From the NCBI RefSeq assembly GCF_041886205.1, contig NZ_CP169029.1: a DNA stretch of 64,000 bases; one strand, given 5' to 3'. Of this stretch, positions 3,001-6,000 are shown in pieces. This DNA comes from Escherichia coli (GTDB lineage Bacteria; Pseudomonadota; Gammaproteobacteria; Enterobacterales; Enterobacteriaceae). The position numbers are program-made. Position 1 is the first letter of the stretch. Each line of letters opens with the position of its first letter.

Positions 3001-6000
3001 GGGTTTTCTGGCTCATGACCATAACCTCAATGATTTATTTTTATACAAACTATGTTACGTGCTGTAACAGGAGCGCGAAGTGTAGGGTCTGAGGTACATC
3101 TTAGAAATCAGACCAGTGGCGAGAGTATAGGTCGGACCAGCTGTAATGTTGCAAGTATGTTTCTATCTTTTTTCAAATATGATCTAAGAAACGCGATCCA
3201 GCTGGCAAAATTTGGAGGTGGCGCACTCATGGATTCGGGTGAATTTTGTTTTAGATCATTTTTAAGTGTGATTTCGGTCACTTATCCGATTTTGCAGAAT
3301 TAACAACTGGAGCAGCACTTTCCGGAAGCGTAAAATATCCACAACGTTTATCTGGCACCTTGGGTGCACATACAGAGGAAATCAACGATGAGTAAATGTA
3401 GTGCTGATGAAACCCCGGTTTGCTGCTGTATGGATGTTGGCACCATTATGGACAACTCCGACTGCACCGCGTCTTACAGCCGCGTGTTTGTAAACCGCGC
3501 AGAAGCAGAACAAACGCTGGCGGCGCTGACTGAGAAAGCCCGTAGCGTGGAATCCGAACCGTGCAAAATCTCCCCGACTTTCACTGAAGAGTCTGACGGT
3601 GTGCGCCTGGATATCGATTTCATTTTTGCCTGCGAAGCTGAAATGCTGATCTTCCAGCTGGGTCTACGTTAATTCCTCTCGGGTACGTACGCCCCTGTCA
3701 GTTGCTGGCAGGGGCGTTTTCTTTTCTCTTCTTCTTTTCTCTCTGTGTCATAGCTCCCACTTTCCCTTTTCTCCACTTGGCTAAATGTAAAAAAATGGTT
3801 AAGACTATGATCAGGTCAGACCACTTTATTTATTTTTTACAGGGGAGTGTTATGGGTCAGGTTTTACCGCTGGTTACCCGCCAGGGCGATCGTATCGCCA
3901 TTGTTAGCGGTTTACGTACGCCTTTTGCCCGTCAGGCGACGGCTTTTCATGGCATTCCCGCGGTTGATTTAGGGAAGATGGTGGTAGGCGAACTGCTGGC
4001 ACGCAGCGAGATCCCCGCTGAAGTGATTGAACAACTGGTCTTTGGTCAGGTCGTACAAATGCCTGAAGCCCCCAACATTGCGCGTGAAATTGTTCTCGGT
4101 ACGGGAATGAATGTGCATACCGATGCTTACAGCGTCAGCCGCGCTTGCGCTACCAGTTTCCAGGCGGTTGCAAACGTCGCAGAAAGCCTGATGGCGGGAA
4201 CTATCCGAGCGGGGATTGCCGGTGGGGCAGATTCTTCTTCGGTATTGCCAATTGGCGTCAGTAAAAAACTGGCGCGCGTGCTGGTTGATGTCAACAAAGC
4301 TCGAACCATGAGCCAGCGCCTGAAACTCTTCTCTCGCCTGCGTTTGCGCGACTTAATGCCCGTACCGCCTGCGGTAGCAGAATATTCTACTGGCTTGCGG
4401 ATGGGCGACACCGCCGAACAAATGGCGAAAACCTACGGCATCACCCGAGAACAGCAAGATGCATTAGCGCACCGTTCGCATCAGCGTGCCGCTCAGGCAT
4501 GGTCAGACGGAAAACTCAAAGAAGAGGTGATGACTGCCTTTATCCCTCCTTATAAACAACCGCTTGTCGAAGACAACAATATTCGCGGTAATTCCTCGCT
4601 TGCTGATTACGCAAAGTTGCGTCCGGCGTTTGATCGCAAACACGGAACGGTAACGGCGGCAAACAGTACGCCGCTGACCGATGGCGCGGCAGCGGTGATC
4701 CTGATGACTGAATCCCGGGCGAAAGAATTAGGGCTGGTACCGCTGGGGTATCTGCGCAGCTACGCATTTACTGCGATTGATGTCTGGCAGGACATGTTGC
4801 TCGGTCCGGCCTGGTCAACACCGCTGGCGCTGGAACGTGCCGGTTTGACGATGAGCGATCTGACATTGATCGATATGCACGAAGCCTTTGCAGCTCAGAC
4901 GCTGGCGAATATTCAGTTGCTGGGTAGTGAACGTTTTGCTCGTGATGTACTGGGGCGTGCACATGCCACTGGCGAAGTGGACGATAGCAAATTTAACGTG
5001 CTTGGCGGTTCGATTGCTTACGGGCATCCCTTCGCGGCGACCGGCGCACGGATGATTACCCAGACATTGCATGAACTTCGCCGTCGCGGCGGTGGATTTG
5101 GTTTAGTTACCGCCTGTGCTGCCGGTGGGCTTGGCGCGGCAATGGTTGTGGAGGCGGAATAATGGAAATGACATCAGCGTTTACCCTTAATGTTCGTCTG
5201 GACAACATTGCCGTTATCACCATCGACGTACCGGGTGAGAAAATGAATACCCTGAAGGCGGAGTTTGCCTCGCAGGTGCGCGCCATTATTAAGCAACTCC
5301 GTGAAAACAAAGAGTTGCGAGGCGTGGTGTTTGTCTCCGCGAAACCGGACAACTTCATTGCTGGCGCAGACATCAACATGATCGGCAACTGCAAAACGGC
5401 GCAAGAAGCGGAAGCTCTGGCGCGGCAGGGCCAACAGTTGATGGCGGAGATTCATGCTTTGCCCATTCCGGTTATCGCGGCTATTCATGGCGCTTGCCTG
5501 GGTGGTGGGCTGGAGTTGGCGCTGGCGTGCCACGGTCGCGTTTGTACTGACGATCCTAAAACGGTGCTCGGTTTGCCTGAAGTACAACTTGGATTGTTAC
5601 CCGGTTCAGGCGGCACCCAGCGTTTACCGCGTCTGATAGGCGTCAGCACAGCATTAGAGATGATCCTCACCGGAAAACAACTTCGGGCGAAACAGGCATT
5701 AAAGCTGGGGCTGGTGGATGACGTTGTTCCGCACTCCATTCTGCTGGAAGCCGCTGTTGAGCTGGCAAAGAAGGATCGCCCATCTTCCCGCCCTCTACCT
5801 GTACGCGAGCGTATTCTGGCGGGGCCGTTAGGTCGTGCGCTGCTGTTCAAAATGGTCGGCAAGAAAACAGAACACAAAACTCAAGGCAATTATCCGGCGA
5901 CAGAACGCATCCTGGAGGTTGTTGAAACGGGATTAGCGCAGGGCACCAGCAGCGGTTATGACGCCGAAGCTCGGGCGTTTGGCGAACTGGCGATGACGCC

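Follow-up and report, generated by a model that had tools for sequence, protein, structure and literature searches.

The 64-kb window (the whole stretch of DNA analysed) belongs to the E. coli chromosome and carries, in order, fadL on the minus strand and yfcZ and fadIJ on the plus strand. The fadL coding sequence occupies 1676-3016 (minus strand; ORF list and RefSeq annotation of an identical strain) and matches the Pfam family Toluene_X (E=6.5e-162); its product represents a mosaic allele with 78% protein identity to K-12 FadL. The intergenic sequence differs from that of K-12 at 1 base in 371. The yfcZ coding sequence (3388-3672, plus strand) encodes 94 amino acids, including 7 Cys residues, with a pI of 4.25, and is assigned through the ORF list, a match to the DUF406/YfcZ-YiiS family, an AlphaFold model and the solved relatives 2k3i, 2khd and 2jz5. 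On the same strand, after a gap of 179 bp, follows the fadI-fadJ operon (3852-7306, plus strand; ORF list, Pfam and RefSeq annotation). Of 80 Enterobacteriaceae species, 78 keep both the divergent fadL-yfcZ pair and the yfcZ-fadIJ order, as does Morganella; the yfcZ-fadI spacer measures 155 to 323 bp, with a single exception of 1,715 bp. A conservation footprint over 81 Enterobacteriaceae species separates the fadL promoter and its operators from a second set of conserved blocks ahead of yfcZ, consisting of FNR-like box, CRP box, -10 hexamer and hairpin. The initial annotation placed yfcZ between two FadR-controlled promoters, those of fadL and fadIJ, which is borne out by the sequence and by published operators; these operators, like the uncharacterised yfcZ itself, are already in the literature.

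The fadL promoter contains two FadR operators on the minus strand. Operator 1 (O1), AGCTGGTCCGACCTATA, lies at 3126-3142, exactly where the initial annotation had read it as a reverse complement; it spans -25 to -9 of fadL and overlaps the -10 hexamer TATACT (3124-3129). It is identified by sequence, weight matrix, conservation, and a published gel shift and footprint. Operator 2 (O2), CACTGGTCTGATTTCTA at 3102-3118, was overlooked in the first reading. It covers -1 to +16, scores 7.0 bits with the weight matrix, has been gel-shifted and appears in a published listing as an LldR box as well; its core ATCAGACCAGTG is the same in nearly all of the 81 species. FadR footprints and gel shifts at the fadL boxes have been published, together with a transcription start that precedes the ATG by 95 bp (PMC3460868). 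The ArcA repressor site of fadL, ATGTTGCAAGTATGTTTCTATCTTTTTTCAAA, maps from the supplement of PMC3798270 to 3146-3177 (minus strand); as it is assigned to -60 to -29, it sets fadL +1 at 3117, in agreement with the start in PMC3460868. The 5' untranslated region accordingly extends over 3017-3117 (minus strand), with its start at about 3117, and is highly conserved in the footprint.

A FadR weight matrix derived from 8 K-12 sites, all at genes lying outside the window, ranks the fadI box first (18.65 bits), a fabB box second (14.4 bits), fadL O1 third (11.2 bits) and fadL O2 about 20th across the 64 kb. Simulated 64-kb sequences reach a mean best score of 13.2 +/- 1.8, so that only the fadI box is significant on sequence alone. 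Searching the window with the consensus CTGGTCNGACCWG at no more than one mismatch recovers solely the two boxes quoted in the initial annotation, those at 3126-3142 and at fadI; at up to two mismatches there are 9 matches against 6.1 expected, and the fadL boxes are not significant by consensus or matrix alone. Their support comes from position, at least 95% conservation in 81 species, and the published footprints and gel shifts.

At the fadIJ promoter, the FadR operator ATCAGGTCAGACCACTT is present as quoted earlier, but its position, given as 3809-3825, is one base off: it occupies 3810-3826 on the plus strand. It lies over the fadI start, consistent with its placement in the literature, and is at least 95% conserved. 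An ArcA repressor site, ATGTAAAAAAATGGTTAAGAC (3785-3805, plus strand; PMC3798270 supplement), is assigned to -26 to -6, which places the fadI start at about 3811. Further upstream, TGTGTCATAGCTCCCA (3744-3759, plus strand) is a conserved sequence match to a CRP box and probably corresponds to the CRP site reported for this promoter in a review (PMC9329746). Both fadL boxes are identical to those published for the fad regulon of E. coli, and the -10/+1 positions fit the published fadL and fadI starts; for fadL and fadIJ nothing differs here from the known system.

The promoter of yfcZ is arranged separately. Its -10 hexamer TAAAAT (3331-3336, plus strand) sits within GCGTAAAATA, whose conservation in 81 species is at least 95%, and transcription probably starts at about 3343-3345. 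The -35 region ACTGGAG (3306-3312) is weak, which is why a generic promoter scan gave nothing useful for this gene. An anaerobic sigma-70 ChIP-seq peak maps to 3352 (PMC3688515), and published silencing of yfcZ by dCas9 bound at ACCCA+AGG corresponds to a site that we read at 3358-3365. Upstream lies a conserved CRP box, TGTGATTTCGGTCACT (3267-3282), centred 157.5 bp upstream of the fadL start, matching a published CRP-cAMP gel shift with a site centred 157 bp upstream of that start. With respect to yfcZ, its centre falls at about -68.5 for a start at 3343, which departs from the canonical class I positions, or at -70.5 for a start at 3345. An FNR-like box, TTGTTTTAGATCAT (3246-3259), shares 8 of 10 consensus bases and is centred 22 bp from the CRP box. 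The complete box is found in 59 of 81 species, its GATCAT portion in 81/81, and the 22-bp spacing is invariant (77/77 species). As a match with 2 mismatches it is not significant, with 43 such boxes in the window against 32 expected. FNR ChIP-seq and ChIP-chip peaks assigned to yfcZ map to 3190 and 3244 (PMC3688515), the centre of the ChIP-seq peak being 62 bp away from the FNR-like box.

Distant DUF406 genes also have FNR boxes with at most one mismatch upstream of them: that of Celerinatantimonas is perfect, that of Corallincola lies at -41.5 of a TATAGT, and the third is found in Agarivorans; 3 boxes in 2.2 kb compare with a background of 0.12 per kb (P about 0.003). The ansB promoter exemplifies an anaerobic promoter that depends jointly on FNR and CRP. 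The yfcZ promoter resembles this type in its tandem CRP-family boxes 22 bp apart, its weak -35, its anaerobic induction and its binding of FNR in ChIP. It differs in the position of the boxes, at about -68 and -90 rather than -41.5, and in that its mRNA depends on FNR weakly or not at all in K-12 grown in glucose medium. We infer that CRP and FNR may activate yfcZ through 3267-3282 and 3246-3259, respectively.

Downstream of the start, the 5' untranslated region of yfcZ forms the stem-loop GCACC-UUG-GGUGC (3353-3367, plus strand), which coincides with a sigma-54-like element, TGGCAC-N5-GTGC. When each sequence was folded singly, a hairpin of at least 4 pairs was found in 64 of 68 distinct UTR variants, and the changes in the stem are compensatory. 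Column-wise counting of pairs on the alignment (A2) was set aside because the hairpin of the Enterobacter clade is shifted by one column. The same bases could be read as a working sigma-54 promoter or a roadblock that places yfcZ under nitrogen (NtrC) control: the element has one mismatch to TGGCAC-N5-TTGC, gSELEX peaks of RpoN holoenzyme (mapping to about 3376) and of NtrC as well as gel shifts have been published for the yfcZ/fadL spacer, and yfcZ mRNA is 3.1-fold lower in nitrogen depletion, in the authors' view because bound holoenzyme represses. We consider this unlikely. A start 12 nt past the GC would sit within the Shine-Dalgarno sequence, a simple search gives 7 matches with at most one mismatch in the window, and the conserved feature is the RNA hairpin with its co-varying stems; the Enterobacter/Lelliottia/Leclercia clade lacks TGGCAC yet retains a hairpin, UCGCGC/GCGCGA.

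Oxygen separates yfcZ from its neighbours. In genome-wide sigma-70 ChIP-seq, reads at yfcZ (peak 3352) rise from 59.7 aerobically to 303.4 anaerobically, whereas those at fadL (peak 3076) fall from 149.6 to 5.3 and those at fadI (peak 3781) from 113.9 to 7.8 (PMC3688515 Table S2). Anaerobic occupancy is thus up 5-fold at yfcZ and down 15- to 28-fold at its two neighbours. In Shigella without oxygen, RNA-seq gives +2.51 log2 for yfcZ and -1.46 log2 for fadL; in an fnr mutant, yfcZ changes by -1.21 log2 in FRT-seq, while the change in RNA-seq is not significant (PMC4229854). In E. coli O157, a 3.0-fold rise of yfcZ is tabulated together with nap, ccm, hyp, hyb, yfiD, ackA and ansB. In K-12 on glucose minimal medium, yfcZ mRNA has no FNR-dependent change, and the gene is missing among the operators tabulated as responding more than 2-fold to oxygen in wild type (PMC3688515 Tables S9, S12), so that anaerobic induction may be modest or dependent on condition. 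In an arcA mutant, fadIJ is derepressed 10.2-fold and fadL 2.8-fold; yfcZ does not occur in the ArcA supplementary tables searched (PMC3798270). It likewise has no entry in the accessible part of the iModulon supplement text (PMC6892915). A 'yfcZ/fadL' sweep described in copper evolution (A262E) is uninformative for yfcZ, as the change must be in fadL, given that yfcZ has only 94 codons.

At its 3' end, yfcZ carries an intrinsic terminator (3689-3727, plus strand), confirming the strong terminator of its own that the initial annotation had proposed. A 13-pair stem (3689-3717) with 9 G-C pairs is followed by the T tract TTTCTTTTCT; the stem is predicted to fold with -25.8 kcal/mol (z=-5.2), and none of 200 shuffled sequences was equally stable. 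After yfcZ, a crude scan recognised a hairpin with its T tract in 46 of 71 species; of the other 25, 13 were folded, and each of these has a GC-rich hairpin just past the stop codon (13/13), with differing sequences. Compared with Rfam at a permissive threshold, 2900-4000 gave a single match, Spot 42 over the terminator; it is sub-threshold (20 bits where the gathering score is 80; E=0.34), and we take it as chance. A terminator of this strength would insulate yfcZ from fadIJ. The shared strand, the 179-bp gap and the widely kept gene order would be compatible with yfcZ being the first gene of a yfcZ-fadIJ read-through transcript and functionally part of the beta-oxidation operon, but this arrangement is highly improbable: a terminator hairpin was found in each genus inspected, fadI has its own sigma-70 peak with ArcA, CRP and FadR sites set around its start at about 3811, the oxygen responses are opposite, and Haemophilus keeps fadL next to a DUF406 gene without adjoining fadIJ.

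The initial annotation further raised a possible co-regulation of yfcZ with fatty-acid uptake and degradation; co-regulation with the fad genes through FadR probably does not hold, as the operators are misplaced and the oxygen response is opposite to that of fadL and fadIJ. FadR boxes (aaCTGGTCnGACCwGtt) are present upstream of yfcZ, where the two in the fadL-yfcZ spacer are the published fadL operators. No FadR box, however, overlies the predicted -35, -10 or +1 of yfcZ or lies near -40, as it does at fabA. From a yfcZ start at about 3343, the fadL operators have their centres some 209 and 233 bp upstream, and the fadI operator lies 470 bp downstream, 138 bp past the stop codon and behind the terminator. 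Compared with the fad regulon proper, the operators are therefore either too distant (about -209 and -233) or beyond the yfcZ terminator, and they are not placed for control of this gene. Judged by this geometry, FadR would have no direct effect on yfcZ.

An indirect effect through the shared divergent region is conceivable, in which FadR would co-regulate yfcZ and fadL by supercoiling coupling or within a looped nucleoprotein complex of fixed geometry, its departure from the fadL operators raising yfcZ transcription. O1 and the CRP box are 140.5 bp apart in 77/77 species, and 56.5 bp separate the CRP box from the yfcZ -10 in 74/77; this spacing is fixed even though 3211-3240 varies in sequence and the yfcZ-fadI spacer in length. 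Nitrogen limitation lowers fadL and yfcZ mRNAs alike, about 3-fold, and both also fall in a mutant of lldR, whose product is a GntR-family relative that binds the fadL boxes in vitro. In a Pasteurellaceae-like contig, a FadR box scoring 15.4 bits precedes the likely DUF406 start by only about 56 bp. The joint falls in mRNA and the invariant O1-CRP spacing make some coupling of the divergent promoters likely. As an explanation for yfcZ regulation by FadR, such a coupling nevertheless appears improbable, since FadR is known to act either by blocking -10/+1 or by activating from about -40, since oxygen moves polymerase occupancy and mRNA one way at yfcZ and the other way at fadL, and since the searched ArcA tables list fadL as derepressed in the arcA mutant but do not contain yfcZ.

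We therefore favour, with a probability of roughly three in four, the reading that yfcZ is an autonomous one-gene transcription unit within the fadL/fadIJ neighbourhood, with its own promoter and terminator, and induced at low oxygen. Directly demonstrated are the sequence elements, their conservation, the published binding of FadR, CRP, FNR, ArcA and RpoN, and the opposite oxygen response. The three FadR operators serve the neighbours, as is known: FadR on 3102-3118 and 3126-3142 blocks RNA polymerase at the fadL -10/+1, FadR on 3810-3826 blocks the fadIJ start, and long-chain acyl-CoA releases FadR from the operators of both. For yfcZ itself, we postulate transcription from its own sigma-70 promoter (TAAAAT, start about 3343), which has a weak -35 and would rely on the upstream CRP box and FNR-like box, with induction when oxygen is scarce. 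The resulting short mRNA would carry the conserved hairpin at its front and the strong intrinsic terminator at its end.

The YfcZ protein is a full-length member of its family: residues 3-94 match PF04175/DUF406 (E=1.7e-35, 121.8 bits with a cut-off of 25), and the score against TIGR00743 is 151.2 bits (cut-off 71.45). It is a small acidic cytoplasmic protein whose beta-alpha-beta-beta-alpha core is ferredoxin-like and whose flexible N-terminal tail is rich in Cys. The AlphaFold core comprises residues 27-93 (pLDDT about 90), and its best Foldseek matches, 2K3I, 2KHD and 2JZ5, are the solved family members YiiS, VC_A0919 and VPA0419, respectively. The Cys-rich character and the CCC motif noted earlier are confirmed in PVCCCMD (residues 10-16); YiiS lacks the CCC run and has GCA in its place. 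Across the family, C12 is found in 27 of 32 sequences, C13 in 22, C14 in 21, C59 in 23 and C82 in 28, and none is invariant. A family-wide metal or Fe-S site formed by Cys is unsupported, given this incomplete conservation and a pLDDT below 50 for the CCC tail. The earlier remark that the function of YfcZ is not known still applies, and extends to every member of the DUF406/YfcZ-YiiS family. Our best guess, prompted by gene neighbourhood, is that YfcZ could serve as a thiol- or metal-dependent accessory in FadL-mediated fatty-acid uptake at low oxygen.

Beyond the Enterobacteriaceae, the divergent fadL-DUF406 pair is kept in Haemophilus (H. influenzae), and the link between the two genes is looser in Alteromonadales-type genomes. 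The Haemophilus pair without adjacent fadIJ and the invariant spacing in 77 species are new but modest observations, and they hint at a link to FadL that does not run via FadR. It is tentatively possible, though on balance doubtful, that YfcZ/DUF406 partners specifically with the fatty-acid channel FadL and not with beta-oxidation. This idea leans on the ancient divergent pair, the shared control region of fixed geometry and the FNR boxes of DUF406 genes across lineages.

For the locus as a whole, a place next to FadR boxes is not enough to class yfcZ as a FadR target, and genome-wide data in the literature show that oxygen regulates it in the opposite direction; this corrects the earlier view. 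For work on y-genes and fatty-acid uptake, the fadL-DUF406 pairing, which outlives adjacency to beta-oxidation genes, and a divergent control region free of indels in 77 species provide a lead. If YfcZ were indeed a partner of FadL, this Cys-rich protein would handle imported fatty acids or adjust FadL at low oxygen.

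The yfcZ gene (3388-3672, plus strand) encodes a full-length DUF406 / YfcZ-YiiS protein and is located between fadL (1676-3016, minus strand) and fadI, which starts at 3852. The window is chromosomal E. coli DNA. Its positions 3000-3900 match strain wlxctx60 at 100% identity, and out of 5,426 complete genomes of the species, 5,425 carry this stretch. In the RefSeq annotation of the identical strain, the genes are ordered mlaA, a hypothetical gene, fadL (-), yfcZ (+), fadI, fadJ, and sixA, with fabB about 19 kb farther along. We gathered the yfcZ locus from 80 Enterobacteriaceae species; 78 of them display the fadL(-) / yfcZ(+) / fadI / fadJ order, and the remaining two loci are incomplete. 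The locus itself is already known.

The FadR boxes around yfcZ are known operators of its neighbours, fadL and fadIJ. The initial annotation had reported a fadL-side box at 3126-3142, where AGCTGGTCCGACCTATA is indeed read as the reverse complement (operator O1, minus strand). Its fadI box has the correct sequence, ATCAGGTCAGACCACTT, but lies one base rightward, at 3810-3826, and the second fadL operator, O2 (CACTGGTCTGATTTCTA, 3102-3118, minus strand), had been overlooked. Feng and Cronan (PMC3460868) placed the fadL start 95 bp 5' of the ATG and described two FadR sites 8 bp apart, with gel shifts for both and release by long-chain acyl-CoA. The fadL ArcA site, beginning ATGTTGCAAGTATGTTTC and assigned to -60 to -29 by Park et al. 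(PMC3798270), maps to 3146-3177, which sets the fadL start at 3117; O1 thus spans -25 to -9, including the -10 element TATACT, and O2 spans -1 to +16. Similarly, the fadIJ ArcA site ATGTAAAAAAATGGTTAAGAC at -26 to -6 (PMC3798270) sets the fadIJ start at about 3811, so that the FadR box spans -1 to +16; the same arrangement is given in a review (PMC9329746). A PdhR box reported for fadIJ, CAGCGGTAAAACCTGAC (3856-3872, minus strand), falls within the first fadI codons, outside the promoter.

We scanned the 64-kb window with a symmetric FadR weight matrix, built from the eight known boxes in the K-12 upstream regions of seven FadR regulon members outside the window. The fadI box ranked first (18.65 bits), followed by a fabB box at 22598-22614 (14.4 bits), fadL O1 (11.2 bits, rank 3), and fadL O2 (7.0 bits, rank about 20). 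As the best score in simulated sequences was 13.2 +/- 1.8 bits, only the fadI box stands out as significant by sequence alone, whereas the fadL boxes are backed by position, conservation, and experiment. The fabB box, GGCTGATCGGACTTGTT, lies approximately 70-80 bp 5' of the fabB ATG (~22681), so the window holds three FadR-controlled promoters.

The fadL gene itself is a mosaic allele relative to K-12. Identity to K-12 is 98-100% in the stretch that begins at the yfcZ start and runs across the spacer to ~230 nt into fadL; beyond it, 100-nt segments are only 49-79% identical, and the FadL protein is 78% identical to that of K-12. An AT-rich ORF of 420 amino acids downstream of fadL (47-1309; 34.5% GC) has no Pfam or NCBIfam match and lies where K-12 carries yfdF. 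Since FadL is annotated in K-12 as the phage T2 receptor, the mosaic allele may represent a diversifying replacement.

A footprint of the fadL-yfcZ spacer across 81 sequences resolved two groups of conserved blocks on either side of the variable positions 3211-3240. Towards fadL, the blocks are the 5'UTR, O2, O1, and the ArcA/-35 region; towards yfcZ, they are an FNR-like box (TTGTTTTAGATCAT, 3246-3259), a CRP box with one mismatch (TGTGATTTCGGTCACT, 3267-3282), ACTGGAG (3306-3312), a -10 element TAAAAT within GCGTAAAATA (3328-3337), TGGCACC..GGTGC (3353-3367), and the Shine-Dalgarno sequence. From these blocks we infer a yfcZ start at ~3343-3345; the fadL start is 226 bp away, and the FadR operators are centred at distances of ~209 and 233 bp. 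Feng and Cronan validated the CRP box by gel shift and deemed its position, 157 bp 5' of fadL, atypical; the ~68-70 bp to the inferred yfcZ start is a more ordinary CRP distance, and the site may serve yfcZ or both promoters. At the other end of the gene, the strong terminator of the initial annotation was recovered as a stem at 3689-3717 followed by TTTCTTTTCT (-25.8 kcal/mol, z=-5.2). A GC-rich hairpin, not conserved in sequence, follows the yfcZ stop in all genera inspected; a crude scan detected it in 46 of 71 cases, and when 13 of the 25 missed cases were folded, each of them had it.

Published genome-wide data set yfcZ apart from its neighbours. Supplementary coordinates of Myers et al. 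(PMC3688515) were converted as window = 2462344 - x, a conversion checked with two ArcA sites. Their sigma-70 ChIP-seq peaks at fadI (3781; 113.9 aerobic vs 7.8 anaerobic reads) and fadL (3076; 149.6 vs 5.3) are aerobic, whereas the yfcZ/fadL peak at 3352 rises from 59.7 aerobic to 303.4 anaerobic reads. FNR peaks at 3190 (ChIP-seq) and 3244 (ChIP-chip) were assigned to yfcZ but classed among sites whose mRNA did not respond to FNR in glucose minimal medium. Higher aerobic levels were listed for fadJ (4.3-fold), fadI (4.1-fold), and fadL (3.1-fold), in a table without yfcZ (PMC3688515). In Shigella flexneri, oxygen removal changed yfcZ by +2.51 log2 and fadL by -1.46 log2, and an fnr mutant showed -1.21 log2 for yfcZ by FRT-seq (PMC4229854). 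In E. coli O157, yfcZ was up 3.0-fold, in the same table as nap, ccm, hyp, hyb, yfiD, ackA, and ansB. An arcA mutant derepressed fadIJ 10.2-fold and fadL 2.8-fold, and the searched supplementary tables of that study contain no yfcZ entry (PMC3798270). The yfcZ gene is a separate unit, induced anaerobically. The possible co-regulation with fatty acid uptake and degradation proposed initially is partly supported: the placement between FadR promoters is real and ancient, but the boxes are those already established for fadL and fadIJ.

Within the yfcZ 5'UTR, TGGCACCTTGGGTGC (3353-3367; TGGCAC-N5-GTGC) deviates from the sigma-54 consensus by one mismatch, which accounts for the gSELEX peaks (mapping to ~3376) and gel shifts of RpoN holoenzyme and NtrC on the spacer. 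Upon nitrogen depletion, yfcZ and fadL mRNAs drop ~3-fold, and the gSELEX authors propose repression. The same bases also fold as a hairpin, GCACC-UUG-GGUGC. In 64 of 68 distinct UTR variants, this position is occupied by a hairpin with 4 or more pairs, and its stem co-varies across genera (GCACG/CGUGC, GCACU/AGUGC, UCGCGC/GCGCGA, UCGCGU/ACGCGA); the Enterobacter/Lelliottia/Leclercia clade keeps it while lacking TGGCAC. Because the hairpin is retained with differing stems, even without TGGCAC, selection at this site most likely acts on an RNA stem-loop. The yfcZ transcript is known to depend on RppH for decay, a route to which 5'-proximal hairpins are relevant, and the one described here may bear on it.

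YfcZ matches PF04175 (E=1.7e-35) and TIGR00743 (151 bits). DUF406 is small, with 106 representatives at 50% identity (E <=0.001) among 1.84 billion proteins, many of them fragments. The AlphaFold model shows a confident beta-alpha-beta-beta-alpha core (residues 27-93), with pLDDT below 50 for the first 22 residues, including the CCC run that had been pointed out initially and reads PVCCCMD at residues 10-16. Only three close structural matches were found, 2K3I (YiiS), 2KHD, and 2JZ5, all structural-genomics NMR entries with no assigned function; the next are generic ferredoxin-like folds. With a pI of 4.25, YfcZ is acidic, and 7 of its 94 residues are Cys. Across DUF406, only M1 and F80 are invariant; Cys is frequent, but none is invariant. 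A role based on a metal or on thiols is possible, though these data do not support it.

Several observations speak for a link between fadL and yfcZ, beginning with rigid spacing. O1 and the CRP box are 140.5 bp apart and the CRP and FNR-like boxes 22 bp apart in 77/77 species, and the CRP box lies 56.5 bp from the yfcZ -10 in 74/77. In contrast, the distance from the -10 to the ATG varies from 47 to 60 bp (86 bp in one species), and between yfcZ and fadI the spacer length ranges over 155-323 bp (1,715 bp in one species). The region 3126-3336 thus stays indel-free from O1 through the CRP box to the -10 in 74-77 of 77 Enterobacteriaceae despite sequence variation at 3211-3240, which suggests a divergent control region where helical phasing matters. 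The pairing is also old. Morganella has mlaA-fadL / yfcZ-fadIJ-sixA; in Haemophilus influenzae and a Pasteurellaceae-like contig, fadL (ompP1) is divergent from DUF406, with no adjoining fadIJ and different flanks. Agarivorans and Corallincola carry a FadL gene 1.7-3.7 kb from DUF406, with an intervening ECF sigma / anti-sigma pair that adjoins the DUF406 gene, and in Celerinatantimonas a patatin-type lipase gene adjoins it. The loci of these three, of Haemophilus influenzae, and of the Pasteurellaceae-like contig are L095 (3424-5288), L098 (3434-5294), L101 (3907-5282), L097, and L102. No comparable link was seen for the Neisseria and Rodentibacter copies. FNR boxes (<=1 mismatch) precede DUF406 in Agarivorans, Celerinatantimonas (TTGATTTAGATCAA, a perfect match), and Corallincola (at -41.5 of TATAGT), amounting to 3 in 2.2 kb vs 0.12 per kb (P ~0.003). 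Finally, the fadL operators are bound in vitro by LldR, which is related to FadR through the GntR family; in an lldR mutant, both yfcZ and fadL decrease.

As modest new leads, these results offer a fadL-DUF406 pairing conserved beyond beta-oxidation and a control region of fixed geometry, together with a co-varying 5'UTR hairpin under a sigma-54-like motif and the FNR boxes of distant homologues.
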